Positions 6,201-43,826 of a stretch of 64,000 bases of DNA are shown here, piece after piece (position 1 is the stretch's first letter; each line of letters opens with the position of its first letter). A program made the position numbers and the translations under genes. The stretch is from Candidatus Uabimicrobium helgolandensis (GTDB lineage: Bacteria > Planctomycetota > Uabimicrobiia > Uabimicrobiales > Uabimicrobiaceae): the NCBI RefSeq assembly GCF_041508025.1, contig NZ_CP165719.1, forward strand, positions 736,023 through 800,022, in the 5' to 3' direction. Under the pieces are notes generated by a model. It worked only from the letters and a program-made list of their open reading frames with translations, was not told the origin of the DNA and did no database searches.

Positions 6201-9200
6201 TTTGTTCTCTACTTTTGGAAAATGGATAAACATATACTTGATTATTTATGCCTACAATTGCTTGTAAATGATCATTATAATGCGCTTCATGTATCTGTGA
6301 AGTAAACGATTTTTTTGCTATCAGTTTTAACGAACTAGCCTCAAATAATGTTGCCTGTTTCGAAGAAAAAACGATTAAATTATTACCATCTGCAGAATAC
6401 GAAAGAGATAATGCTTTTGTAGGCAAATCGATGTTTTTTAAAGAACTAAAATCTTTAGTAGAAAGCATTTGTAGTTTATTTTTGGAGTCGATTACTGTTA
6501 TTTGTTGTTTATTCGGATGTAAAGTAATTGCTCTGTAGCTCTCTTTCGATAGATAAATTCTTTTTTTACTGGCTAAGTCCCAAACAATTATACGATTATT
6601 TGTGCTAAGATATACTAGTTTCGAATCTTCGAGGTGAACATCAAATGAGCTACGCGGAATTTCTTTACAAGCCATTGTCGAAATCAGTTCTTGTTTTTGG
6701 GTATTCCAAATGCGAATGGTTTTATCTTTACTTATAGAAACGAGCTTATAGCCTTCATCGAGGTAGATTGTTGCGACTATTTCTCGCTGATGGCCACGAA
6801 GTATTCTTTCGTCACTATTTTCATCTATAGACCAAATGTGTATACTATTATGATTTTGCGACACGGCAGCAATTTCTTTGTTATACGGATGAAAAACACA
6901 AAAAGTAAACTGCGCTGACAGTTGTTGAAAAATATTATTTAAGCGACCAGTACTCGTGTCCCACAAATGTACATTGCTATCTGTTGTTACACTTGCAAGC
7001 ATTTTGCCATCTTGACTGGAGGTAATATGAGAAACAGGAGTGCTGTAATGAGGAGTTGTTTCCCAAACTAAACCCTCTTTCATTAGTGCTAGCTTTACAA
7101 ATTTCTTGTTCTTATTGCGAATCTCATCCACTTCATCTGGTGGTAAATTTTTTGTGAGCTCTAAACTAGCACTTGAAAATAAAAGACTATCTTTCCATTG
7201 CTGATTATCAAACGCTTCGCTAGCCTTTTGTAATGAAATTTTAGCCAATGTTTTTTTTGCAGCTTTGGCTTCAGCAAAACGAATGCGCTCTTCGCGTTTT
7301 GCTTTCATCCTTTCAAATTCGGCTCGTCGTGCTGCTTCTTCAGCTATTTTTTTTTGCTTTTCAACTTTTTCAGTTTCGCGCTTAGCAATATCTCGTTGTT
7401 CCTGGGCTTCTTTCGAGTTAACTTTTGCAATGGCCTCTTGTTTTTTCGCTTGTGTGGCATTTTTTTCTGCAAGCAAATGTTCTTGGCGTATAAAATACAA
7501 ACTAACACTCAATACTAAAAACGTAAGAAGTACTGAACCCAATAACAATAATCGTACTCGTTGCGAAGACTTTTCTGCTTTTATTTTTTGTTGTTTTGCC
7601 TGTTGAATTTGTTGTCGTACTTGTTGAACTTGTGGATCATCGCGGTCTAATTCATCAATCTGAGCTTCACTTAAACCTAAATCATCGTTTCTTAAAGCTA
7701 TCGTTGAATAGGCAATACGTGCAGCATATCTTCCTTCTTTAGCAATTGTATTTCCTGTCCACAGTTTTAACGATTGCTCGAAACAACTAACTGCTTTCGA
7801 AAACTCAGCATAAAGGTGGTTTCTTTGTTTTCCTTTGAGTTTTTTATCTTGAGCTTGTTGGTTTTCTTCTAATATTTTTTGACCTTCTCCAGAGATAATT
7901 AAGCTCTCGCGGTGTTTTAAGAAATAGGCTATAGCTTTTTTGAAATCATCAACATCTTGGAAACGATCTTCTGGAAGTTTTGATAGGGATTTACTGCATA
8001 TATCTTTTAACTCATGTGGAATATGATCTTCAATGAATAAATCATCGCGTTTTTGATCAAAACTTGGCTTGTCAGAAGCAATGGCTTTCATTAATGATTT
8101 CCATATATTCTCATCGTAATGTGGTGGTTTGCCGGTGATAATTTCGTGCAGAATCGCTCCGAGAAGATATGTGTCTGTCCACGGACCTATTTCTTTTCCA
8201 CAGCCTTCAGCTAATTCAGGACTCATATAATGAGGTGTTCCCATTGGGCTTGTAACCATTGATTTATGAAGCGTACGTAACTCCGGTGAAATTTCATCTC
8301 TAGAAACTGCAAGTCCCCAGTCCATCACTAAAACTTCCCCAAATTCACCTATCATAATATTTTCTGGCTTTAAATCATTATGAACAATACCTTTGTTGTG
8401 CGCAAAAGCCATTGCATCACATACGTCGAGTAAAATGCGTAAATGTGCTTCTAAGTCGTACTGTTTAAAACGCTCGTTTTCTGCCGTTTTGTTTAATATC
8501 TTTTTCCATTCCACCCCTTTTACTAATTTCATTGTAAGGAATACATTGCCGTTTATATTTTGACCTAGCTCATAAACAGGAACAATATTTGGATGGTCAA
8601 GGTATGCAGTAACAAGAGCTTCAGAAATAAATTTTTGCTGACTCACATTGTTAATACTTCCAGGAATGATTCTCTTTATTGCAATTTCACGTTTAAGACT
8701 TTTTTGTTCACCTTTGTTGATAATTCCCATACCACCACGAGCTATTTCAGTTCCAATTACAAAATTTTCTGAGCGCGAGTCAAGTTTACTTTTAATGCCA
8801 TCATGTAGGGTATCTTTCATACTGTGAGTTGTTGTGGCTCTTAAAGGATTTTGTGGCGTTTTTTGTTGCGGTTGATCATCATCACAAATAGTTTTTGAAT
8901 CTTCTAGGCATTCATTTTGCACTGCGTCATTGTCTTGTGCGCCAATGATTGTATTTGCTGCACTCATGCTTTTTTCATCGATGATGTTATCAAAAAGAGT
9001 TTGTGCTCCTTTTTCTAAGTCAGATATTTCAGAAGGTAATTCTTCAGAGCTACCATCTAAAGTTTGATTGCCACTTGCACAATCGGGCAAACTTTTTATC
9101 AAATCATCTTTGCTATCAAAATTCGCATCCAAAGTTTGGTCACCTTGTAAGTCATTATTTACAGGGCTATTATCGTTATCTAAAATTTCAGTGGCTATCG

Positions 9201-9813
9201 TTTGGTCGTCTAAAGTTTGGTCACCCTGCAAGTCGTTGTTTACAGGGCTGTTATCGTTATCTAAGGTTTCAGTGGCTATCGTTTGATCGTCTAAAGTTTG
9301 GTCGCCCTGCAAGTCATTGTTTACAGGGCTGTTATCGTTATCTAAGGTTTCAGTGGCTATCGTTTGATCGTCTAAAGTTTGGTCGCCCTGCAAGTCATTG
9401 TTTACAGGGCTGTTATCGTTATCTAAAGTTTCAGTGGCTATCGTTTGATCGTCTAAAGTTTGGTCGCCCTGCAAGTCATTGTTTACAGAGCTGTTATCGT
9501 TATCTAAAGTTTGGTCACCTTGTAAACCATTATTTACAGGACTATTGTTATCAACAGCTGTTTCTTGAACTTGTACAGGAGTTCCAGTAGCTGTTTCATT
9601 AATTGTTTCGTCTCCCTCGGAGATCACTGATCCTTTTGGAGTAATTACTTCAATACTCGTATCGTTTTTGTTGAGCAAAGTCATGAGTGGTAAATATACA
9701 TTTTTGCTTGCAAGAGATTCAGCACCTTTATATGTAGTTCCACCACCACCACGCTCTAATTGCTCAGCTCCAATTGTTTTTGACCAAAGTTCGTGAATTG
9801 TTTTTTCATCCAT
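3274..9813 (-). CDS. Giant Ser/Thr protein kinase (Hanks-type) with N-terminal acidic tandem repeats, TM segment, coiled coil and about 20 or more C-terminal WD40 repeats
   Basis: 2179 aa. The kinase catalytic loop HNDLKPENIMI, the DWGLA (DFG-like) motif and SPE (APE) are present. A hydrophobic stretch (LLLLGSVLLTFLVLSVSLYF) and a K/E-rich coiled coil follow. Repeated WD40 signatures (e.g. GH...V..V.FSPDG, WD/WN dipeptides) run to the C-terminus. The RBS GAGGG lies 8 nt upstream of ATG 9813. Confidence 0.9.
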   Translation of the reverse strand: MDEKTIHELWSKTIGAEQLERGGGGTTYKGAESLASKNVYLPLMTLLNKNDTSIEVITPKGSVISEGDETINETATGTPVQVQETAVDNNSPVNNGLQGDQTLDNDNSSVNNDLQGDQTLDDQTIATETLDNDNSPVNNDLQGDQTLDDQTIATETLDNDNSPVNNDLQGDQTLDDQTIATETLDNDNSPVNNDLQGDQTLDDQTIATEILDNDNSPVNNDLQGDQTLDANFDSKDDLIKSLPDCASGNQTLDGSSEELPSEISDLEKGAQTLFDNIIDEKSMSAANTIIGAQDNDAVQNECLEDSKTICDDDQPQQKTPQNPLRATTTHSMKDTLHDGIKSKLDSRSENFVIGTEIARGGMGIINKGEQKSLKREIAIKRIIPGSINNVSQQKFISEALVTAYLDHPNIVPVYELGQNINGNVFLTMKLVKGVEWKKILNKTAENERFKQYDLEAHLRILLDVCDAMAFAHNKGIVHNDLKPENIMIGEFGEVLVMDWGLAVSRDEISPELRTLHKSMVTSPMGTPHYMSPELAEGCGKEIGPWTDTYLLGAILHEIITGKPPHYDENIWKSLMKAIASDKPSFDQKRDDLFIEDHIPHELKDICSKSLSKLPEDRFQDVDDFKKAIAYFLKHRESLIISGEGQKILEENQQAQDKKLKGKQRNHLYAEFSKAVSCFEQSLKLWTGNTIAKEGRYAARIAYSTIALRNDDLGLSEAQIDELDRDDPQVQQVRQQIQQAKQQKIKAEKSSQRVRLLLLGSVLLTFLVLSVSLYFIRQEHLLAEKNATQAKKQEAIAKVNSKEAQEQRDIAKRETEKVEKQKKIAEEAARRAEFERMKAKREERIRFAEAKAAKKTLAKISLQKASEAFDNQQWKDSLLFSSASLELTKNLPPDEVDEIRNKNKKFVKLALMKEGLVWETTPHYSTPVSHITSSQDGKMLASVTTDSNVHLWDTSTGRLNNIFQQLSAQFTFCVFHPYNKEIAAVSQNHNSIHIWSIDENSDERILRGHQREIVATIYLDEGYKLVSISKDKTIRIWNTQKQELISTMACKEIPRSSFDVHLEDSKLVYLSTNNRIIVWDLASKKRIYLSKESYRAITLHPNKQQITVIDSKNKLQMLSTKDFSSLKNIDLPTKALSLSYSADGNNLIVFSSKQATLFEASSLKLIAKKSFTSQIHEAHYNDHLQAIVGINNQVYVYPFSKSREQKRAIFHRPKNIKCLRYGPDMKTIAISSDNLLQLLDQHGKYIGEWKSASKIRDIAYHPNSSFIATANKDNSIFLWNTRKQKAQKMVAHDGEITMLQIAPNQQLYATVAKDNTVCLWDTKGELIRSLKGHSAEINDIAFLPDSSGIISTAEDRTIRIWDTNTGRVKQTLKTNESIYKLSCSPDGKKLAGSSRKSVYLWNAKTGKPIRKYNGHKKDITCLTFDRTSNFICSGDKNKKILVWTLTNSQPKYTLKKHSAQITNIHYSRKQDYIYSISSDRSLRLWNLRSGKLVRSFDKHSTEVTAMAFSKDETLLASIAGKNVYLWDAQSGQKLAQLTGHKSWVKDIAFSTDNKYLISSSSDKTVKLWSVRSKRNVATLEGHNDQVLSVRQIQNSIVSISRKETIAWNTTTQKPSYINYTGHTSPVNSIVISNDGKWLISGSDDKTIRLWSLKTRKVVTVLAGHNSSILKVAISPQGQFIASGSSDKTIRIWNMGKNKAIFVLFGHKEPVTFVKFHPQGRSIVSASQDRTTRLWNIVTGQEIRTFKEDQALVNDICFSPDGNTIGIAYKTKPAVLLNLGTEVPLAYIDRENKSTRGITYSKDGKFVASATNSIVRLWRAPHNKHVAFFGDHSSKVNSVSYSPNAQHFVSSSDDKTVKVWNVSNKKVVANLDGHNHKVVRVKYIKNYIVGASNNNELYIWSSKDYSFVRSIPGEKVFTTYKDNLAYKNKNEIIIQNLKSGQVTYQLKYKEKLSVLDYSYDGNWLVTGSKSIQLWNLKVADYSYTLCELEHLVQTLVYIRGDQLIFSKKAGVIHVWDLKKREEVQTFEGHRAQITQLIYDSKYHALFSSSKDNSVVWWDLITSKKVSTVAQHRKAVLSIDHYNGVLLTASLDKTIRLWQTLPVSNRQIKTPEWILKIVSQKDEQIPRKSHELLFRNSIPERALDYAMDNEPLRITQYLYHSRVSDTFAIKSIPNLRLPSLGK
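9123..9552 (-). repeat. In-frame 81-bp tandem repeat array (about 5 copies) inside the kinase N-terminus, encoding DNDNSPVNNDLQGDQTLDDQTIATETL
   Basis: Near-identical 81-nt units are visible directly in the DNA (…ggtcgccctgcaagtcattgtttacagggctgttatcgttatctaa…). The + strand shadow ORFs 9003..9590 and 9068..9286 are artefacts of this repeat. Confidence 0.85.
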
Positions 9814-17995: not shown

Positions 17996-19519
17996 ATGGC
18001 AAAGAAAATGCGAAATGCTATCGCTCCTACAAGAGTAGAGGATTACCCTGAATGGTATCAGCAAGTCATAAAAGCTGCTGATTTAGCTGAAAATTCAGAA
18101 GTTCGTGGTTGTATGGTGATTAAACCGTGGGGATATAGCCTTTGGGAGAATATTCAGCGCTGTTTAGATAAAATGTTTCGAGACACAGGACATCGCAATG
18201 CCTATTTTCCGCTATTTATTCCTTTGAGTTATATGGAAAAAGAAGCAGAACATGTTGAAGGGTTCGCCAAAGAATGCGCTGTCGTAACTCATCACCGCTT
18301 AGAACCAGGAGAAGACGGAGGTCTAGTTCCTGCAGGTAAACTAGAAGAACCTCTTGTTATACGTCCGACTTCAGAAACTATTATTGGTGCAGCATTTTCG
18401 CGTTGGGTACAATCGTATCGCGACTTACCACTTCTCATTAATCAGTGGGCAAACGTAGTACGTTGGGAATTGCGCACGCGGTTATTTTTACGTACTGCAG
18501 AATTTTTGTGGCAAGAAGGACATACCGTGCACGCCACAAAACAAGAAGCGGTAGATGAAACACTACAAATGCTAGATGTCTATGCTGACTTTTGTGAAAA
18601 CTTTATGGCAGTACCAGTAATAAAAGGATGTAAAACAGCTAGCGAAAGATTTCCTGGCGCAGTGGATACATATTGTATTGAAGCGATGATGCAGGACAAT
18701 AAAGCTTTACAAGCAGGAACATCGCATTTTCTAGGGCAAAATTTTTCACGCGCATCAAATATAAAATTTCAAGACAAGAATGGTGAAGAAAGTTTTGCAT
18801 GGACAACTTCTTGGGGAGTTTCAACGCGTTTGGTAGGTGCACTTATTATGGCTCATGGTGACGATGATGGATTAGTTATGCCTCCGCGTATCGCTGCAGC
18901 CCATGTTGTTATCGTACCAATGCTTAACAAAGCTGAAACTAGAGACCAAGTACTAGAATACTGCGACGACTTAGTACAGCAGTTGAAAAAAATCAACTAC
19001 TACGGAACAGAATTGCGTATTGAATATGATAAACGCGATATTGGCACTGGGCAAAAAACCTGGGAATGGATCAAAAAAGGTGTACCAATTCGCATAGAAG
19101 TAGGTGGCAGAGAACTACAAGAAGGAAATGTCTTTATGGGCAGAAGAGACAAAGGACCAAAAGAGAAAGAAGCAATGCCTAAAAGTGATTTTATTGCAAA
19201 AGTAACTGACATTCTAGACGATATTCACAATAATCTTTACACCCGCGCCGCAAAATTTCGCGACGAAGCGACGAAGAAGATAGATAGCAAAGAAGAGTTC
19301 TACGAATTCTTTACTCCAAAAAATAAAAAGAAACCTGAACTTCACGGTGGTTTTGCTCTATGCCACTGGAGCGGAGAAGCAGAAGTAGAAGAACAAGTAA
19401 AGAAAGATTTAAAAGTAACTATTCGCTGTATACCTCTAAATGGTGAAAAAGAAGAAGGTAAATGTATTATCAGCGGAAAACCAAGTAAACAGCGTGTTGT
19501 TTTTGGAAAAGCATACTAG
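17996..19519 (+). CDS. proS: Prolyl-tRNA synthetase, archaeal/eukaryotic-type class II
   Basis: 507 aa. The conserved blocks EVRGCMVIKPWGYSLWE, RPTSETIIG and RWELRTRLFLRTAEFLWQEGH are characteristic of ProRS type 3. Confidence 0.9.
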   Translation: MAKKMRNAIAPTRVEDYPEWYQQVIKAADLAENSEVRGCMVIKPWGYSLWENIQRCLDKMFRDTGHRNAYFPLFIPLSYMEKEAEHVEGFAKECAVVTHHRLEPGEDGGLVPAGKLEEPLVIRPTSETIIGAAFSRWVQSYRDLPLLINQWANVVRWELRTRLFLRTAEFLWQEGHTVHATKQEAVDETLQMLDVYADFCENFMAVPVIKGCKTASERFPGAVDTYCIEAMMQDNKALQAGTSHFLGQNFSRASNIKFQDKNGEESFAWTTSWGVSTRLVGALIMAHGDDDGLVMPPRIAAAHVVIVPMLNKAETRDQVLEYCDDLVQQLKKINYYGTELRIEYDKRDIGTGQKTWEWIKKGVPIRIEVGGRELQEGNVFMGRRDKGPKEKEAMPKSDFIAKVTDILDDIHNNLYTRAAKFRDEATKKIDSKEEFYEFFTPKNKKKPELHGGFALCHWSGEAEVEEQVKKDLKVTIRCIPLNGEKEEGKCIISGKPSKQRVVFGKAY

Positions 19520-19524
19520 AAATT

Positions 19525-19559
19525 AAAGTGTTAGAGCGCAATTTGCGCTCTAACACTTT
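19525..19559. terminator. Perfect 16-bp palindrome hairpin immediately after the proS stop
   Basis: aaagtgttagagcgcaa-t-ttgcgctctaacacttt. There is no strong U-tract, so this may be a processing or protein-binding site rather than a canonical terminator. Confidence 0.45.
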
Positions 19560-19630
19560 AATGATTAAGAAAACGTTTATCATCATCTGAATTGATTGAA
19601 AATTCATGAATAAAGCCAGCTTTACTTCGT

Positions 19631-20012
19631 GGATTCCTGGTCAAGCCAGGAATGACAGTGAAGTTGAGTTTAAGCGCTATATCGAAGGCTTGTACAAGAA
19701 GAGTTGTAAGTTTTTTAATTTTAGACTTTTCGAACACACCCAAATCAATCGTCTTCGCTCGACCATCATCTCAACCTTCCATTCCAAACTCGACCATAAT
19801 CCTCAACCTTCTCCGTCATTCCAAACTTGACCATAATCCTCAACCCCGTCATTCCAAACTCGACCATAATCCTCAACCTTCTCCGTCATTCCAAACTTGA
19901 CCATAATCCTCAACCCCGTCATTCCAAACTCGACCATAATCCTCAACCCCGTCATTCCAAACTTGACCATAATCCTCAACCCCGTCATTCCTGGCTTGAC
20001 CAGGAATTCACG
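19631..20012. repeat. Hairpin-bounded tandem repeat block: inverted 26-bp palindromic ends flanking six 33-37-bp direct repeats
   Basis: The ends are ggattcctggtcaagccaggaatgac (19631-56) and its reverse complement gtcattcctggcttgaccaggaat (19984-20007). Between them lie six units gtcattccaaac(t/c)(t/c)gaccataatcctcaacc(cc|ttctcc). Confidence 0.8.
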
Positions 20013-20028
20013 ATCACAAGAAAACCGT

Positions 20029-20310
20029 CTATAATAAAAAAAGATCATTCCAATCAGGATTATTTCGTTTAATAAGATCTATTTTCCATTGCCGCTTCCA
20101 TTTTTTCAGCTGTTTTTCACGATAAATAGCGTCATAGACTTCTGTAAACATTTCTATATACACAAGTTTATTAACACTATATTTTTGTGTAAACCCGCGC
20201 GTAAATTTCGACTTATGTTCATACATTCTTCTTTCTATATCATTGGTCACACCAACGTATAAAGTGCCATTTTTTCGGCTAGCAAGAATATACACAAAAT
20301 AATCTTTCAT
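20029..20310 (-). CDS. GIY-YIG nuclease superfamily protein (small, URI-domain)
   Basis: The motifs YFVYILASRKNGTLYVGVTNDIERRMYEHK (GIY…YVG) and the conserved R/E/N residues are present; 93 aa. Confidence 0.85.
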   Translation of the reverse strand: MKDYFVYILASRKNGTLYVGVTNDIERRMYEHKSKFTRGFTQKYSVNKLVYIEMFTEVYDAIYREKQLKKWKRQWKIDLIKRNNPDWNDLFLL

Positions 20311-20454
20311 AAAACTCCTCCGAAATAGTATTGTATAGATTTTATAATACCTTTAGTTGCGACAAGTTGGCTTTTCTCGCGAAGAATTGGCACAACTATT
20401 CATCTTAGATTTATAAACAAAACACTAGTACAATACTCTTTGGAGATTACAAAA

Positions 20455-21411
20455 ATGAAATTACAACAAATTGTTAAAACACCATACTTGGCATCGCGTA
20501 TTGCTTACGGATGTATGGGAATTGGTGGTTCTTGGGATCATAATTCTTTAAATATAAACGAACAGAGAAATGCCACCATAGCAATTGAAACAGCATTTGA
20601 AACTGGCATTAATATTTTTGATCACGCAGACATATACTGCTTCGGTAAATCGGAACATGCTTTTGCTCAGTTTATTATTGATAAACCCCACTTACGCGAC
20701 AAAATTATTTTACAGAGTAAGTGTGGCATTCGCATTGCAACAGATAATCATATAGGTCATTACGATTTTAGTTATGATCATATTATTAATTCTGTTGAGC
20801 AGAGTTTAAAACGTCTGCAGACTTCTTATTTGGATATTTTGCTTTTACATCGCCCAGATGTTCTTGTAGAAGGAGAAGAAGTTGCGAAAGCTTTTTCAGA
20901 GCTCCATCAAAGTGGTAAGGTACGTTTTTTTGGTGTCAGTAATCATACTGTTATGCAGATAATGTATTTACAAAAATACATACAACAACCTCTTGTTATT
21001 AATCAAGTGCAGCTCAACGTTATTGACAATGATTTGTTCAATTCTGGAATTGTTGGAGGTGGAGGAAATTCGTTAGATAGTGTTGGTTTAGTAGAATATT
21101 GTCGCATCAATGATATTACAATTCAAGCATGGGGACCATTAGCATCAGGAAAGATATTTGTGGAACAGCCTCAAAACCATCGAGTTGCTGCGGTACAGAA
21201 AGTACTTCATAAACTGGCAGAGAAGTATTGTACAAATACTATGGCTATTGCTCTAGCATGGATACTCCTTCATCCTGCCCAAATACAACCTGTCATTGGT
21301 AGTTCTAATCCTTCACGTATTCGCAATGCTTGTGAGGCCATTAATGTTGATCTTACGCGTTCAGAGTGGTATGAACTTTTCGTTGCGGGGCGAGGAGCAA
21401 ATTTACCCTAA
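20455..21411 (+). CDS. Aldo/keto reductase family oxidoreductase
   Basis: RIAYGCMGIGGSW, FDHADIYCFGKSE and LLHRPD motifs are present. The ATG at 20455 with GGAG 9 nt upstream was preferred over the TTG at 20440. Confidence 0.8.
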   Translation: MKLQQIVKTPYLASRIAYGCMGIGGSWDHNSLNINEQRNATIAIETAFETGINIFDHADIYCFGKSEHAFAQFIIDKPHLRDKIILQSKCGIRIATDNHIGHYDFSYDHIINSVEQSLKRLQTSYLDILLLHRPDVLVEGEEVAKAFSELHQSGKVRFFGVSNHTVMQIMYLQKYIQQPLVINQVQLNVIDNDLFNSGIVGGGGNSLDSVGLVEYCRINDITIQAWGPLASGKIFVEQPQNHRVAAVQKVLHKLAEKYCTNTMAIALAWILLHPAQIQPVIGSSNPSRIRNACEAINVDLTRSEWYELFVAGRGANLP

Positions 21412-22769
21412 TCAAATACCACTTCGCAATTTGGTAACCATTTGCGTATTTTGTCTTGCTCGGTTAGAGAAATGTTATTATCTATTAGATAAATTTGCGA
21501 AAGCTTCGGTAAATTTTTGATTGTTTGTGGAAGAAATTGTAGCTTGTTGTTATCTAAATGCAAAACTTTTAAAGACGATAGATTACCAAATTCTAGGGGA
21601 AGTACTTGTAGTTGGTTGCTACTTAAATCTAAAAACGCTAAATTGGTGAGAGAGCCAAATTCAGATGGTAAGCTTTTAAGCTCATTGCTTGATAGATTTA
21701 GTCTATACAGACTTTTTAATTGTCCAAACTCTAACGGTAAAGTGGTTAAATAGTTACTTGATAAATCTGCCTTATACAAGCTATGTAAATTCCCAAAATG
21801 TGATGGTAAAGTATACAATTTGTTTTTACATATTTCTAGTTTGCGTAAATTATGTAAGTTCCCAAAGTCTTTTGGTAACGACGTTAGGCTATTTTCTGTT
21901 AAATCCAAATCCGTCAATTTAGTCATGCCACTCAAATTTTTTGGCAAGGCGGTTAGTTCATTTCCTTGGAGATTAATACTTATAATATTTTGTAGCTGAC
22001 TTATGTTTATAGGTAGTTTTTGTAGTTGGTTATCTTTTATCGTCAATCTTTCTAAATTTGAGAGTTGCGAAAAACCCTCAGGTAAAAATTGTAAATTATT
22101 ATTAGTTAAAACCAAGCGCTCTAACTTTTCTAACTTTCCTAGATAATCAGGAAGAGCAACAAATAAATTGTTTTGCAAATTAAGGTATTGCAATTTTTTC
22201 TGAGTGTATAAACTTTGTGGTAGAGTTTGCAGTTTATTATATGAAAGGTCTAGTGTTTCTATATTCGATAAATAAAAATTTGGGCATAGTGAAGAAATTT
22301 GGTTGCCTGATAAATCGAGTGTTTGCAATTCTCGCAACTGATTTATTTGCTGAGGAACAGTTACAATTTTATTGTTAGATAAATCTAATACTGACAGCTT
22401 TTCTATACAACCAATTACCGTTGGAATTTGTGAAATATTGCGCCAGCGTAGAGAAATAATCGTATTTTTGGGAGCTTGATGAAAATAAGCTAGATCTTTC
22501 GTTGTTATTTGTGAAATCCTCCAATCACTTGCTCTCCAAACAGCTAGTTCGTAGCTTCCTCGTCCAATCACAATGTAAATAGAAAAGTAGTTTTGAAAAG
22601 AAAAAGAGCAGATTTTGTAGTTATTGCCATAAGCTTTTTGTAATTCACTTCGCGCTCTAAAGTATACTACCGTTAACGTTGCAATAGCTACATTGGATAG
22701 AATAAAAATGATGATCAAAGACTTGACAATCCAGCCTGTTTTTTTGTGTTTAGTATTTTTAGAATTCAT
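21408..22769 (-). CDS. Membrane-anchored leucine-rich repeat protein (about 15 LRRs)
   Basis: It has an N-terminal TM (IIFILSNVAIATLTVVYF) followed by consecutive 23-aa LxxLxLxxNxLxxLPxxxxxLxx units. Its 3' end overlaps the aldo/keto reductase gene convergently by 4 nt. Confidence 0.8.
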   Translation of the reverse strand: MNSKNTKHKKTGWIVKSLIIIFILSNVAIATLTVVYFRARSELQKAYGNNYKICSFSFQNYFSIYIVIGRGSYELAVWRASDWRISQITTKDLAYFHQAPKNTIISLRWRNISQIPTVIGCIEKLSVLDLSNNKIVTVPQQINQLRELQTLDLSGNQISSLCPNFYLSNIETLDLSYNKLQTLPQSLYTQKKLQYLNLQNNLFVALPDYLGKLEKLERLVLTNNNLQFLPEGFSQLSNLERLTIKDNQLQKLPINISQLQNIISINLQGNELTALPKNLSGMTKLTDLDLTENSLTSLPKDFGNLHNLRKLEICKNKLYTLPSHFGNLHSLYKADLSSNYLTTLPLEFGQLKSLYRLNLSSNELKSLPSEFGSLTNLAFLDLSSNQLQVLPLEFGNLSSLKVLHLDNNKLQFLPQTIKNLPKLSQIYLIDNNISLTEQDKIRKWLPNCEVVFD

Positions 22770-22968
22770 ACAAAAAAAGACCTTATAAATTTTCAAAATC
22801 AATAGAGGTATAGTGAGTTGGTGAAATAACACCGCTACCAACTTCTACGATATTATATTTTAAATAGTCTTACCATAAGCTGTTTTTTTCTGAATAAGCC
22901 AATTTTTATGTTCGAATTTACAAAAAAATAGATGCCAAAACTATTCTAAACCATTATAATTTAAGCAA

Positions 22969-29031: not shown

Positions 29032-29109
29032 AATAGACCTTTCTTTATTCTGTTATGTTTCAATGGCGTAATCTTAAATTATGTAAAAAATATGATCTTT
29101 ATATTTGTA

Positions 29110-29358
29110 GGGCGTGTCATCATTCAAAATATTGTGTGTTTTTTCGAGCCCGAGCCCGTTTGCGAAACTTTCACTAACAATTTATCAAAGAAGCAAAGTT
29201 TCTTTTTCCATCGCAAAAAACTAGTATTGAACCAATAAATCACTTTCTGTCGCTCTCAAAAAGTTTTCGGACGCGGGCTCGCAAACGGGCTCAATACTAC
29301 TGGCGTATCATTAAATGAATCCGTTATATTTTTATCTGTATTGAATGATGACAGGCCC
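29110..29358 (-). mobile_element. MITE copy A (inverted orientation, about 249 bp, internal 12-bp deletion)
   Basis: Its terminal inverted repeats are gggcgtgtcatcattcaa…ttgaatgatgacaggccc. The interior is the reverse complement of copies B and C. Confidence 0.85.
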
Positions 29359-29445
29359 TAAATGTTTGCGATGTAACAAAATAACTTTTTTAGTTGGGGT
29401 AACCTCATAATTACACAATTATGAGATCGTACCCATTTAGATAAA

Positions 29446-35483: not shown

Positions 35484-35499
35484 TTAGTTTCGGAGTGTA

Positions 35500-35766
35500 G
35501 GGCGTGTCATCATTCAATACAGATAAAAATATAACGGATTCATTTAATGATACGCCAGTAGTATTGAGCCCGAGCCCGTTTGCGAGCCCGCGCCCGAAAA
35601 CTTTTTGAGAGCGACAGAAAGTGATTTATTGGTTCAATACTAGTTTTTTGCGATGGAAAAAGAAACTTTGCTTCTTTGATAAATTGTTAGTGAAAGTTTC
35701 GGAAACGGACTCACAAATGGGCTCGGGCTCGAAAAAACACACAATATTTTGAATGATGACACGCCC
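35500..35766 (+). mobile_element. MITE copy B (267 bp)
   Basis: The 19-bp TIR is gggcgtgtcatcattcaat/…attttgaatgatgacacgccc. Internal 25-bp inverted repeats gagcccgagcccgtttgcgagcccg / cgggctcgcaaatgggctcgggctc are present. It is about 98% identical to copy C. Confidence 0.9.
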
Positions 35767-36020
35767 TGGTTAAAAATAATTTACTGATTTTATCTGTCGC
35801 GACTATGTACGTCCAGATAACCAGTTCATTAGTAAAATTTCTATGTAAAATTTGGTGTATTGTTTTTCGCTACACTCTCAATACATACTCTATATAAAAT
35901 CTTTAACGTTCTAAGTGGTTACTTTTAACTTCTTTAAAATATTTTTCAAAAAAAATAGCGTTTTAAAATATTGATACAAAACGTCTTAGGTAAAACTTTC
36001 TTATTTTTTATTTTTTTGTA

Positions 36021-37616: not shown

Positions 37617-37748
37617 TTAGTTTTACCTAGCTCAACAAACAATTGAGTTCTCAGAAGCTTTACTTCAAGTATTCGTATATTAAAGACCTCGACTTCAGTA
37701 CCTAAATACATTCAGTGGTACAATTTTTGGTTGAATGCCCTTAAATTA

Positions 37749-38013
37749 GGGCGTGTCATCATTCAATACAGATAAAAATATAACGGATTCATTTAATGAT
37801 ACGCCAGTAGTATTGAGCCCGAGCCCGTTTGCGAGCCCGCGCCCGAAAACTTTTTGAGAGCGACAGAAAGTGATTTATTGGTTCAATACTAGTTTTTTGC
37901 GATGGAAAAAGAAACTTTGCTTCTTTGATAAATTGTTAGTGAAAGTTTCGGAAACGGGCTCGCAAATGGGCTCGGGCTCGAAAACACACAATATTTTGAA
38001 TGATGACACGCCC
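37749..38013 (+). mobile_element. MITE copy C (265 bp)
   Basis: It has the same TIRs and interior as copy B and lies in direct orientation relative to B. Confidence 0.9.
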
Positions 38014-38450
38014 TAAGTAAAATTGACAAATTGCATAAAACTTTTACTACTCGCTTCCGTGATAGAGCTTTACTATAGTCTATTGCAAAGGTTACATTCA
38101 TTATTTGAACGGCTGAATGCATTCTACTTCTCTCCTCTAAAATTGTACAAAAGAATTTTAGTTCTTTTAAAGGCATTATCTTTGGAATCTTTCCAGTATT
38201 ATAAAGGATGAATGTCTTTACTTCTTTGGATTTTTTAGTTTGAAAGAGTGGTGAATTCGCACTATTTTCCTATGTAAGTTATCAATAAACTTGACGACTA
38301 ATAACAAAAATTGATTTACTTACAATGTTTTGTCAAATAAAGTACGCATTTTCCTTTTCTTATTATTCAATTTTATGAGTACGTTTTGAGAAAGCGCTGC
38401 TTACAAAGATCCAAGTAAAACTCCTGAAATCATTCAGAAAGGATTTTCTT

Positions 38451-41774: not shown

Positions 41775-43826
41775 ATGTCCACAAATCAAAATCGACACAA
41801 GGAAAAGCAAAAAAGTCAAACAGTAGAAACGTTATTTACTACTTCACAAAACCTTGTAGATTCAGAAGAAAATCAAGAATTAGCAACACAACATACGATG
41901 ATTGATAATTCTCAATTGCACACGCCACCAGCGAAAACAGAGCATACGATTGTTGAAAATAAGACAGCGCAAACGCAGCAAACAGTTCTATTCAATTCTC
42001 AGGAACGAATTGATTGCGAAGAACGAACGCGACAAACAATAGTTCAAAAAGATTCACTACAAACAAAATTGCCTGCTGTTTTTGCAGAAAAATACGAAGT
42101 ATTAGGTATTTTAGGTTCTGGAGCAATGGGAAAAGTATTTAAAGCTCTAGATAAAACTTCTAATCAACAAGTGGCCATTAAAGTAATCCACAAAAGTCAG
42201 GAAGATTCTCAGGATATAGTGAAGCGGTTTTATCGCGAATCAAAATTACTAGAGAAGTTAAATCATCCTCATATTATTAAGATTTATGAACAAGGAGAAT
42301 ATGAAGGACAACCTTATTTTGTCATGGACCTTGTACAGGGAACAACTTTAACAGCTGTATTGAAACAAAAAAATTATCCACTAAGACGCAAATTATCTTT
42401 ATTAATCCAAGTGCTTGAGGCAGTTGATTGTGCTCATAACGAAGGTGTCATTCACCGTGATTTAAAACCAGACAACATAATGGTGACTCCAAAAGCAAAA
42501 GCCCTTGTTATGGATTTTGGTATCGCACGCGATCAAGATGATCAAAACGCAACTAAATTAACAAAAACTGGCATGTTAGTAGGAACACCTCTTTATATGT
42601 CTCCAGAACAAATTAACGGAGAGAAAGTAACAGATGCCAGCGATATTTATACCTTGGGTGTTATTATGTATGAAATCATTACTGGAAAAGTCCCTTTTTG
42701 CGGAAATCTTAGCAAGATTATGTGGCAAGTAGCTCACAGTGATCCTACCCATCCTCGCGAAGTGTCCAACAATATAGCTAAAGATTTATCAAAAATATGT
42801 TTGAAAGCTATGGCAAAAGAACAAGAGGAACGTTATACAACAGCAAAGGCTATGGCAGACGATATCAGGTGTTATTTAAAGGGGCAAAAAATATCTGCTA
42901 AATCTTCTTTTGGTGTAAAAAAATGGGTCTCTAAAAATCGTAATTCTTTACTGTTACCATGTGTGGTTTTGATTGTAGGACTTATATTTTTAAGTCAAAA
43001 CAAAGACAAAATAACAGGCGAAAATAATGTGGTAGAAAATGATGGGCAAAATTTAGAAAACTCTGTAACAAAACGAAATGATACTGTTAACGATAAGCAT
43101 CCAAAAGATAAGTTTGGTAGACCACACGACGACGGACCACATGGTCAAAATAAACACCCACACAACGACAGACCACACCACGACAGACCACACGATAACG
43201 GACCACATGATAAAAATAAACATCCACACGACGACAGACTACATGATCAAGAGCCAAATGACGAAGACAAACATTCAGAAGATGGGAGACTGCATAAAGA
43301 ACCGCACCATAAAAATAAACGCCCAGGTAGATCACATGACAAAGAACTACACGACGAAGATAAACAGCCCAGAAATAATTTTGGCAGACATCATGGCAAA
43401 AATAAACGCTCAGAAAATAGTAGATTGCATGATAGAGATAAACGCCGTAATAAACTTGACAAGCCAATAGATGAAGAGTTTTTCGATGAAGAACTCGAAG
43501 ATAATTTTGGCGAAGATAGACCACGTCGCCGTAGATTTGAAGATATAGAAGAGCGTGTAGATAAAAGATTTGAACGCGGTAATCGAAATGTAGATAAAAG
43601 ATTCGAAAACGGTGAACACCCAAATCGACGTAATAGGCTTGGATCAATAGATAGAAAAAAAATATCTCGCAGCGAAATGCATAAATTAAATAAGCACTTT
43701 CGTTTTTGTAAAGAGTGTCACCATCTTTTGCGTAAAAACCGTATCAAACCAAGTCGTCCTCCGCGGTTAGCAAAATTACCAAAAGAAATCTTCTTAAAAA
43801 TTAAAGCGCATGCTGAAAAAGAGTAA
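41775..43826 (+). CDS. Membrane Ser/Thr protein kinase with C-terminal His/Asp/Pro-rich repeat region and Arg-rich tail
   Basis: The kinase motifs GSGAMGKV, AIK, HRDLKPDNIMV, DFGIA and SPE are present. A TM helix (LLLPCVVLIVGLIFLS) follows. The tail has repeats of the form [KN]KHPH[DN]DRPH, then R/E-rich segments and a CKECHH motif. The RBS AAGGAG lies 6 nt upstream. Confidence 0.85.
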   Translation: MSTNQNRHKEKQKSQTVETLFTTSQNLVDSEENQELATQHTMIDNSQLHTPPAKTEHTIVENKTAQTQQTVLFNSQERIDCEERTRQTIVQKDSLQTKLPAVFAEKYEVLGILGSGAMGKVFKALDKTSNQQVAIKVIHKSQEDSQDIVKRFYRESKLLEKLNHPHIIKIYEQGEYEGQPYFVMDLVQGTTLTAVLKQKNYPLRRKLSLLIQVLEAVDCAHNEGVIHRDLKPDNIMVTPKAKALVMDFGIARDQDDQNATKLTKTGMLVGTPLYMSPEQINGEKVTDASDIYTLGVIMYEIITGKVPFCGNLSKIMWQVAHSDPTHPREVSNNIAKDLSKICLKAMAKEQEERYTTAKAMADDIRCYLKGQKISAKSSFGVKKWVSKNRNSLLLPCVVLIVGLIFLSQNKDKITGENNVVENDGQNLENSVTKRNDTVNDKHPKDKFGRPHDDGPHGQNKHPHNDRPHHDRPHDNGPHDKNKHPHDDRLHDQEPNDEDKHSEDGRLHKEPHHKNKRPGRSHDKELHDEDKQPRNNFGRHHGKNKRSENSRLHDRDKRRNKLDKPIDEEFFDEELEDNFGEDRPRRRRFEDIEERVDKRFERGNRNVDKRFENGEHPNRRNRLGSIDRKKISRSEMHKLNKHFRFCKECHHLLRKNRIKPSRPPRLAKLPKEIFLKIKAHAEKE

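Follow-up and report, generated by a model that had tools for sequence, protein, structure and literature searches.

The repeat locus described here lies within a window of 64,000 nucleotides, which is the whole stretch of DNA that was analysed, from the genome (CP165719) of 'Ca. Uabimicrobium helgolandensis' HlEnr_7, a phagocytosis-like planctomycete (PMC11481906). Downstream of proS, which ends at 19519, there is a gene for a small GIY-YIG nuclease, here called ssn, and next to it are two inverted hairpins and an array of short tandem repeats (Table 1). The neighbours of ssn are proS, an aldo/keto reductase gene and a gene for a leucine-rich-repeat (LRR) protein of 477 aa, the last being found two genes from ssn at 21408-22841.

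Table 1. Features of the ssn repeat locus, in coordinates of the window
Feature	Position	Strand	Sequence, basis or remark
Perfect hairpin with 20-bp stem, just past proS	19522..19562		Inverted repeat I4, 100% complementary, 1-nt loop
Left SRM hairpin, 30 nt	19627..19656	minus	GTCATTCCTGGCTTGACCAGGAATCCACGA on the minus strand; canonical C straight after the palindrome
Single-copy spacer, left hairpin to array	19657..19749		No significant similarity to the fetched loci or the rest of the window; no Ssn remnant with the HMM
Decayed seventh unit, distal end of the array	about 19750-19777	plus	GTCTTCGCTCGACCATCATCTCAACCTTC; repeat family D3
Six head-to-tail units, 37/33 nt	19778..19983	plus	GTCATTCCAAACT(C/T)GACCATAATCCTCAACC(TTCTCC/CC)
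Right SRM hairpin, 30 nt	19984..20013	plus	GTCATTCCTGGCTTGACCAGGAATTCACGA; T after the palindrome
ssn, 93-aa single-domain GIY-YIG nuclease of the Ssn family	20029..20310	minus	Pfam and homology to SsnA
Conserved block 5' of ssn	20342..20368	minus	AACTTGTCGCAACT...TATTATAA (minus strand); alignment with L001-L004

The two arms of the inverted repeat are 30 nt each, 97% complementary and separated by 327 nt, and the stop codon of ssn is 15 nt beyond the right arm. The 26-mer GGATTCCTGGTCAAGCCAGGAATGAC is present at 19631-19656 on the plus strand and its reverse complement, with one mismatch, at 19984-20009, for which the expectation by chance is 0; the octamer GTCATTCC is found seven times in the 64 kb against an expected 0.94, with every one of these occurrences in this locus. 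Each arm is itself palindromic, having an 8-bp stem, ATTCCTGG/CCAGGAAT, and a 5-nt loop, and when folded as single-stranded DNA the left hairpin gives -7.3 kcal/mol (z = -3.1 relative to shuffles) and the right -9.0 kcal/mol (z = -4.5).

The array makes up the right-hand 206 bp of the interior between the hairpins. Its unit, GTCATTCCAAACTYGACCATAATCCTCAACC, has six copies at 19778-19981, five of them exact and the leftmost with 2 mismatches, where 0 would be expected by chance; TRF reports a period of 33 with 6.5 copies together with a perfect 70-nt higher-order repeat, and units of 37 and 33 nt alternate in the order A B A B A' B. The repeat family D3 also includes CTCGACCATCATC at 19758-19770, which falls within the decayed seventh unit. 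All units are oriented like the right hairpin and lie on its 5' (GTCAT) side. They have kept the GTCATTCC, the loop, CT(C/T)GA, and the AATCC of the hairpin, with AAA replacing TGG in the 5' arm and T replacing GG in the 3' arm, and in single-stranded form they have no stable fold (0 to -0.8 kcal/mol). The label "de-palindromised" which the earlier note on this DNA had given them is therefore correct. The same note had described the inverted hairpins with their interior, the six units and the 93-aa GIY-YIG gene beside the repeats, and had held that this was not a CRISPR; all of this stands, the units abutting without spacers.

Two further candidates at the locus were rejected. Open reading frames of 81 aa run through the array on both strands but are mere translated repeats, and the remnant of a second ssn gene to the left of the left hairpin, hinted at because 14-15 nt there match the ELIE-coding region in homologues, was dropped when a search of the six-frame translation with the family HMM found nothing. 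Two other tandem repeats are present elsewhere in the window: an 81-nt unit at 9131-9512 (4.7 copies, 96% matches), which may be coding because its period is a multiple of three, and a set of nested 15/51/66-nt repeats rich in CCACAC/GACAGA at 43119-43274.

The hairpin just past proS probably terminates the transcripts of both proS and ssn, which converge there, and as such is context lying outside the repeat system; an equivalent GC-rich hairpin follows proS in a relative (L124). A simple terminator scan did not call this hairpin and called none at the Ssn hairpins either, and a promoter scan at the locus gave nothing above background. Of the sequence upstream of ssn, only the block at 20342-20368 is conserved when the window is compared with the homologue loci L001-L004, and from this conservation it may be the ssn promoter. 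A search of the window against Rfam, with the gathering scores and also with E <= 1 as the cut-off, returned only a tRNA-Pro elsewhere and sub-threshold noise on the proS terminator.

The ssn product matches Pfam PF01541 over residues 4-77 (E 7e-18); the other Pfam match, to T5orf172 (PF10544), is weak (E 8.6e-4) and overlaps the same stretch, and the only match in NCBIfam is a sub-threshold one to a group I intron endonuclease. A search of the PDB found only distant structures of UPF0213 and no Ssn structure. Proteins of the UPF0213/YhbQ type (PDB 1zg2, 1ywl) are likewise small, stand-alone GIY-YIG domain proteins, and are regarded as a different subfamily because their similarity to the window protein is weak (E 8.5e-5 and 1.5e-3). 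We know of no hairpin partner for proteins of this type.

It has recently been reported that Neisseria encode SsnA, a 94-aa single-domain GIY-YIG protein (cd10448) that acts as a site-specific nuclease on single-stranded DNA (Chenal et al. 2025, Nat Commun, PMC11893778). For comparison with it, two N. gonorrhoeae chromosomes which are filed as plasmids in PLSDB served as the gonococcal reference. With tblastn the window protein finds a gonococcal match at E 6e-24, well within the E < 1e-10 used by Chenal et al. as their criterion, and the 94-aa ORF extracted there has Y6, Y17 and E64 and is surrounded by nine exact NTS motifs. In blastp the window protein and this SsnA are 52% identical over 86 aa (E 2e-34); Y7, Y18 and E65 of the window protein align with Y6, Y17 and E64, the residues that were mutated by Chenal et al. 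Furthermore, in an alignment of 78 family members all of the family-invariant columns are kept in the window protein, and its 93 aa compare with a family median of 95 aa. By homology, therefore, the window protein is a member of the Ssn family and a homologue of Neisseria SsnA.

SsnA binds the directional hairpin repeat NTS, CGTCATTCCCGCGMAVGCGGGAATCYRG, as single-stranded DNA only, and cuts a few nucleotides upstream of the hairpin (PMC11893778). Its cutting is governed by the three bases which precede the palindrome and the top base for its binding is the C that directly follows it; loss of the palindrome lowers binding, and SsnA cuts even when the two halves of the NTS are on separate oligonucleotides (PMC11893778). 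Homologues of Ssn number in the thousands across phyla and are flanked by related hairpins, the SRMs, and in meningococci the Ssn/NTS system reduces transformation by DNA that contains the NTS (PMC11893778). From the homology we would anticipate nuclease activity and specificity of this kind in the window protein, including the cutting of single-stranded DNA only, 5' of the hairpin. The 93-aa protein would bind the hairpin GTC-ATTCCTGG-CTTGA-CCAGGAAT-C when the strand that carries it becomes single-stranded, be this in replication, in repair or in DNA uptake, and the cut would fall a few nucleotides 5' of GTCAT, which would place it on the minus strand for the left hairpin and on the plus strand for the right. 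The right hairpin may bind poorly, because a T stands at the position that is most critical for the binding of SsnA.

The hairpins of the window are not found with the published patterns. The NTS consensus has no match in the window, and the published degenerate SRM search pattern has no exact match there, the left hairpin being one substitution away from it and the right two; with one substitution allowed, the SRM pattern finds the left hairpin and three unrelated sites in the window. The hairpin and the NTS have their outer parts in common, CGTCATTCC...GGAATC (with the edges C/T-GTCATTCC ... GGAATC), whereas in the window the inner stem reads TGG...CCA around a loop of 5 nt and in the NTS CGCG...GCG around one of 4 nt, and it is because of these differences in inner stem and loop that the NTS and SRM patterns miss it. 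Judged as a directional hairpin (GTC, an 8-bp stem and a C after the palindrome) the left copy is complete and the right has T for C, a position that is C in 178 of the 186 hairpins at homologue loci. The right hairpin is in the canonical place and orientation downstream of ssn. The left hairpin is found past the array with its GTCAT end inward, and the canonical upstream hairpin of ssn is absent from the window.

That such hairpins belong with ssn is seen from other genomes. A set of 80 metagenome loci that encode Ssn homologues, with 56-78% identity to the window protein, was examined for GTC-hairpins up to 400 nt upstream or up to 600 nt downstream of the gene; hairpins are near ssn in 67 of these loci and on both sides of it in 44, the 186 hairpins counted comparing with 3.2 in shuffles. 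The canonical layout is hairpin-ssn-hairpin with the GTCAT ends facing outward. In six unrelated loci (L151, L152, L167, L171, L174 and L195), the proteins of which are only 58-62% identical to that of the window, ssn is flanked by the identical 24-nt core GTCATTCCTGGCTTGACCAGGAATC, and in the closest homologues (77-79% identity; L001-L004 and L128) loop variants of the hairpin stand 22 nt past the stop codon, placed as in the window. By this association the window hairpins are, in all probability, the partners of Ssn, despite their mismatch to the published patterns.

The stem is also widespread beyond these loci. There are two copies of the hairpin within the 64-kb window, and a scan of species-representative genomes found this stem variant in no fewer than 119 blocks, spread over many phyla; at least two loci are in the sister species U. 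amorphum, where the blocks listed include two intergenic mosaics. Five of the 119 listed blocks have a tblastn match to ssn, four of which are full length and directly adjoin a hairpin, with the fifth, L033, having fragments only; most of the hairpin copies among the listed blocks are far from ssn, which is expected of dispersed repeats. As this widespread ATTCCTGG/CCAGGAAT stem subtype escapes the SRM search pattern, the published SRM counts are probably underestimates.

The earlier note had accordingly been right to compare the palindromes with extragenic hairpins of the REP/BIME type, and its speculation that the GIY-YIG protein is their trans-acting partner was correct, although already published in 2025, since the protein belongs to the Ssn family, for which Chenal et al. 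had demonstrated this relationship (PMC11893778). It had also proposed that further copies of both repeats be looked for, along with their co-localisation with other GIY-YIG genes; this has been borne out for the palindrome, both in its spread and in the homologue loci that have it near ssn, and has failed for the 33-nt unit in the material searched. A 25-nt stretch of the unit has 0 matches in the JGI metagenomes, and neither the 207 fetched loci nor the remainder of the window yielded a homologue of the array or of the ~120-nt spacer.

The same note had raised the idea of a small non-autonomous element with hairpin ends. On this view the 383 bp running from one hairpin to the other would be MITE-like, with the hairpins as terminal inverted repeats, and the GIY-YIG protein or some other enzyme would mobilise the element in trans. 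Inverted repeats of such length and complementarity are what would be looked for in a MITE, hairpin-ssn-hairpin modules elsewhere do act as discrete units in that homology stops at their outer GTCAT ends, and there are hairpin pairs without ssn in the relatives L124, L106 and L059. Nevertheless this explanation would seem highly improbable and, as a hairpin-capped element, it fails because the GTCAT end of the second hairpin faces inward, opposite to the arrangement in all of those modules, the right hairpin being simply the canonical 3' hairpin of ssn. Furthermore there are no flanking direct repeats that would indicate a target-site duplication, neither the interior nor the unit has a further copy in what was searched (the window and the fetched loci, and for the unit also the JGI metagenomes), and the proS locus of the relative L124 has a different arrangement of hairpins.

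In two contigs from relatives, L124 and L126, in which ProS is 89% and 84% identical, the gene order upstream is kept and that downstream of proS differs, with ssn, the aldo/keto reductase gene and the LRR gene all absent from this position and the break in synteny falling straight after proS. In L124 the proS terminator is directly followed by two paired hairpins of two further variants, with no ssn beside them. Because other hairpins are present there and the downstream content differs, the site past proS is a hotspot for hairpins as well as a break in synteny.

Arrays are not confined to the window. When TRF was run on all of the fetched loci to find arrays beside intact hairpins, head-to-tail hairpin arrays were found in ten (L065, L090, L091, L142, L146, L148, L171, L177, L189 and L206). 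Some are built of half hairpins with periods of 16-24 nt, as in L189 where five copies of GTCATTCCTGCGAAGTCTGT are followed by a complete hairpin, and others of whole hairpins with periods of 33-35 nt (L148, L142 and L091); in the latter most of the 5' units have imperfect stems, and the 3'-terminal unit is perfect in L142 and in one array of L148. The units of L091, GTCATTACAAACGAATACCACTAATCC, have decayed much as those of the window, with TGG becoming AAA and GAATCC becoming TAATCC. Of 15 short-period arrays that touch an intact hairpin, counting that of the window and representing about 10 independent loci, 13 are on its GTCAT side, and one of the remaining two is a poly-T tract. It is common for ssn loci to carry tandem arrays that are polar in this way, whether composed of half, whole or decayed hairpins, and the array-bearing side is that on which SsnA cuts. 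A further example is formed by L090 (2560-3840) and L033 (390-970), both from contig_30 of the MAG CBDBHR01, where 16 hairpins with the same stem are found within 1.3 kb, in blocks of alternating orientation and with partial duplications of 16 nt (TCATCGAGTTGTCATT) and 23 nt (CAGGAATGACACGCTTGT...) that are always on the GTCAT side; in L033 the hairpins have ssn gene fragments near them.

Very probably, then, the locus consists of an Ssn nuclease gene and its cognate SRM hairpins together with an array of decayed hairpin copies that has no function of its own. The units of the array would be head-to-tail duplicates of a unit made up of hairpin plus tail, in which both halves of the stem were lost first (TGG to AAA and GG to T), amplification as a 70-nt dimer having followed. 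The array is most likely a by-product of slippage or of break-repair at the hairpin, and a link between it and nicking by Ssn is plausible but unproven. A stronger form of that link is a tentative and rather doubtful proposition, namely that hairpin arrays, including that of the window, are the footprints of Ssn action in vivo, with a nick 5' of GTCAT being followed by re-copying or by the insertion of hairpin units where the cut was made. Units would then be added only on the GTCAT side because the nick sits just 5' of GTCAT, nicking by Ssn and copying would account for the discrete hairpin-ssn-hairpin modules in which homology ends at GTCAT, and the recurrent de-palindromisation would arise because array units survive only once the stem is lost. 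If this were true Ssn would itself drive the multiplication of its hairpins, in the role that RAYTs are believed to have for REPs.

It could also be supposed that the array is functional, the stem-less units serving to titrate Ssn or to guide it, as decoys or half-sites, or else being binding sites for another protein. What the units retain fits with this, as only the pairing bases have been lost and the GTC and the C after AAT, which are the most important for cutting and binding by SsnA, are kept; the same decay is found in the unrelated array of L091, and SsnA can cut NTS halves on separate oligonucleotides (PMC11893778). We consider it improbable, given that a search of the JGI metagenomes found the unit nowhere, that the array has the gradient of decay and the higher-order duplication typical of neutral minisatellites, that loss of the palindrome lowers SsnA binding (PMC11893778), and that no conservation of the array was found in relatives. 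Extremely improbable is a third possibility, that the array or its copy number is an artefact of assembly. The enrichment DNA had indeed been whole-genome amplified and sequenced by Nanopore (PMC11481906), and tandem repeats adjacent to hairpins are prone to error in both amplification (here multiple displacement) and assembly. Regular units of two consistent variant types within a perfect 70-nt higher-order repeat are, however, unlike random read error, and comparable arrays by the same type of hairpin are present in many independent short-read assemblies. The exact copy number of the array is not guaranteed, because the assembly is of Nanopore reads from amplified DNA.

The system of Chenal et al. 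and that of the window share a single-domain GIY-YIG protein of ~94 aa with its invariant residues, and directional hairpins with 5' GTCATTCC and 3' GGAATC edges adjoining the gene. The window differs in its planctomycete host and in having only one canonical flanking hairpin, and adds a head-to-tail array of stem-less units; tandem arrays have no mention in the main text of the Ssn paper, in which the word "tandem" does not occur (PMC11893778). There is also some likeness to the REP/BIME-RAYT systems, in which extragenic hairpins likewise form mosaic clusters and flank the gene for a small protein, by which they are recognised in single-stranded form. The RAYT is a HUH/Y1 transposase like those of IS200/IS605 whereas the partner in the window is a hydrolytic GIY-YIG nuclease; no RAYT/Y1 transposase gene was found at the locus, the adjacent gene being GIY-YIG, and a strand-transfer mechanism is not expected.

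In Neisseria the NIMEs consist of dRS3 inverted repeats, ATTCCCN8GGGAAT, that flank RS elements of ~50-150 bp, measured at 19-214 bp (Bentley et al. 2007, PMC1797815). They are like the window locus in having two inverted palindromes of ~20 nt, of the ATTCC...GGAAT type, that enclose non-coding repeat DNA beside a gene, and in that such arrays are dynamic. The palindrome of the window, ATTCCTGG-N5-CCAGGAAT, does not however fit the dRS3 consensus, and its interior is 327 bp, is built of decayed hairpin copies and does not form a long alternating array; the resemblance is one of analogous architecture only.

The locus is another example of a known system and not a new kind of element, and the basic picture of the Ssn family is unchanged by it. 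It is nonetheless an independent rediscovery, from raw sequence, of the pairing between a GIY-YIG nuclease and directional hairpins, and extends this pairing to a phagocytosis-like planctomycete. With a canonical hairpin, a hairpin in which the critical C is replaced by T, and stem-less units, it also provides a natural test set for Ssn specificity, and the polar arrays are a possible handle on how Ssn hairpins multiply.

A number of observations concern the mobility of ssn and its hairpins elsewhere. When ssn loci in differing contexts are compared, it is precisely at the outer GTCAT ends that homology breaks off (L172/L164 compared with L184/L201, and L134 with L207), and L183 has the upstream context of one of the groups in the first comparison and the downstream context of the other; because homology stops at these ends, the hairpin-ssn-hairpin module of ~370 bp moves or recombines as a discrete, exchangeable unit. 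Chenal et al. noted this architecture merely as IS-like (PMC11893778). In L001 (2040-3420) and L002 (300-1680) a pair of IS5-like transposase genes (DUF4096 and DDE_Tnp_1) lies between the upstream hairpin and the putative ssn promoter, the cassette being bounded by compound inverted repeats of ~70 nt that consist of an outer GTCATCAATTAAAG segment and a hairpin. As the flanks differ among L001, L002 and L003, ssn may travel as the passenger of a DDE element.

Within the window there are three copies of a MITE-like element of ~255 bp, at 29108-29361, 35498-35767 and 37746-38015, which are 98-99% identical with one of them inverted. The element has terminal inverted repeats, TAGGGCGTGTCATCATTCAA, and internal subterminal repeats of the GAGCCCGAGCCCGTTTGCGA type, and all but one of the copies are flanked by TA on both sides. 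Its termini resemble the outer ends, TAGGGGCTGTCATCAATTAAAAG, of the cassette of ssn and IS5-like transposase in L001/L002, and also those of a unit without ssn in U. amorphum (L059). In the same species (AP019860; L106, 2740-3080) an insertion of ~240 bp splits the loop of the hairpin variant GTCATTCCTGCGAAAGCAGGAATCCAC and is accompanied by an apparent duplication of 10 bp, TGCGAAAGCA; the ends of the inserted DNA are inverted, ACTTGTCAAGCTAAGA / TCTTAGCTTGACAG, and two more hairpins lie inside it. It looks like a nested insertion into a hairpin, reminiscent by analogy of the insertion of phage and of IS110-type elements into dRS3 in Neisseria. Finally, a perfect 34-bp palindrome, GACGTGTCATCAATTAATTGATGACACG, is found between a HAD phosphatase gene and proS in the closest relative, in L124 (5952-5985) and L125 (785-808), and is absent from that position in the window; it is made up of two back-to-back termini of the MITE, and could be either a minimal element or the footprint of an excision.
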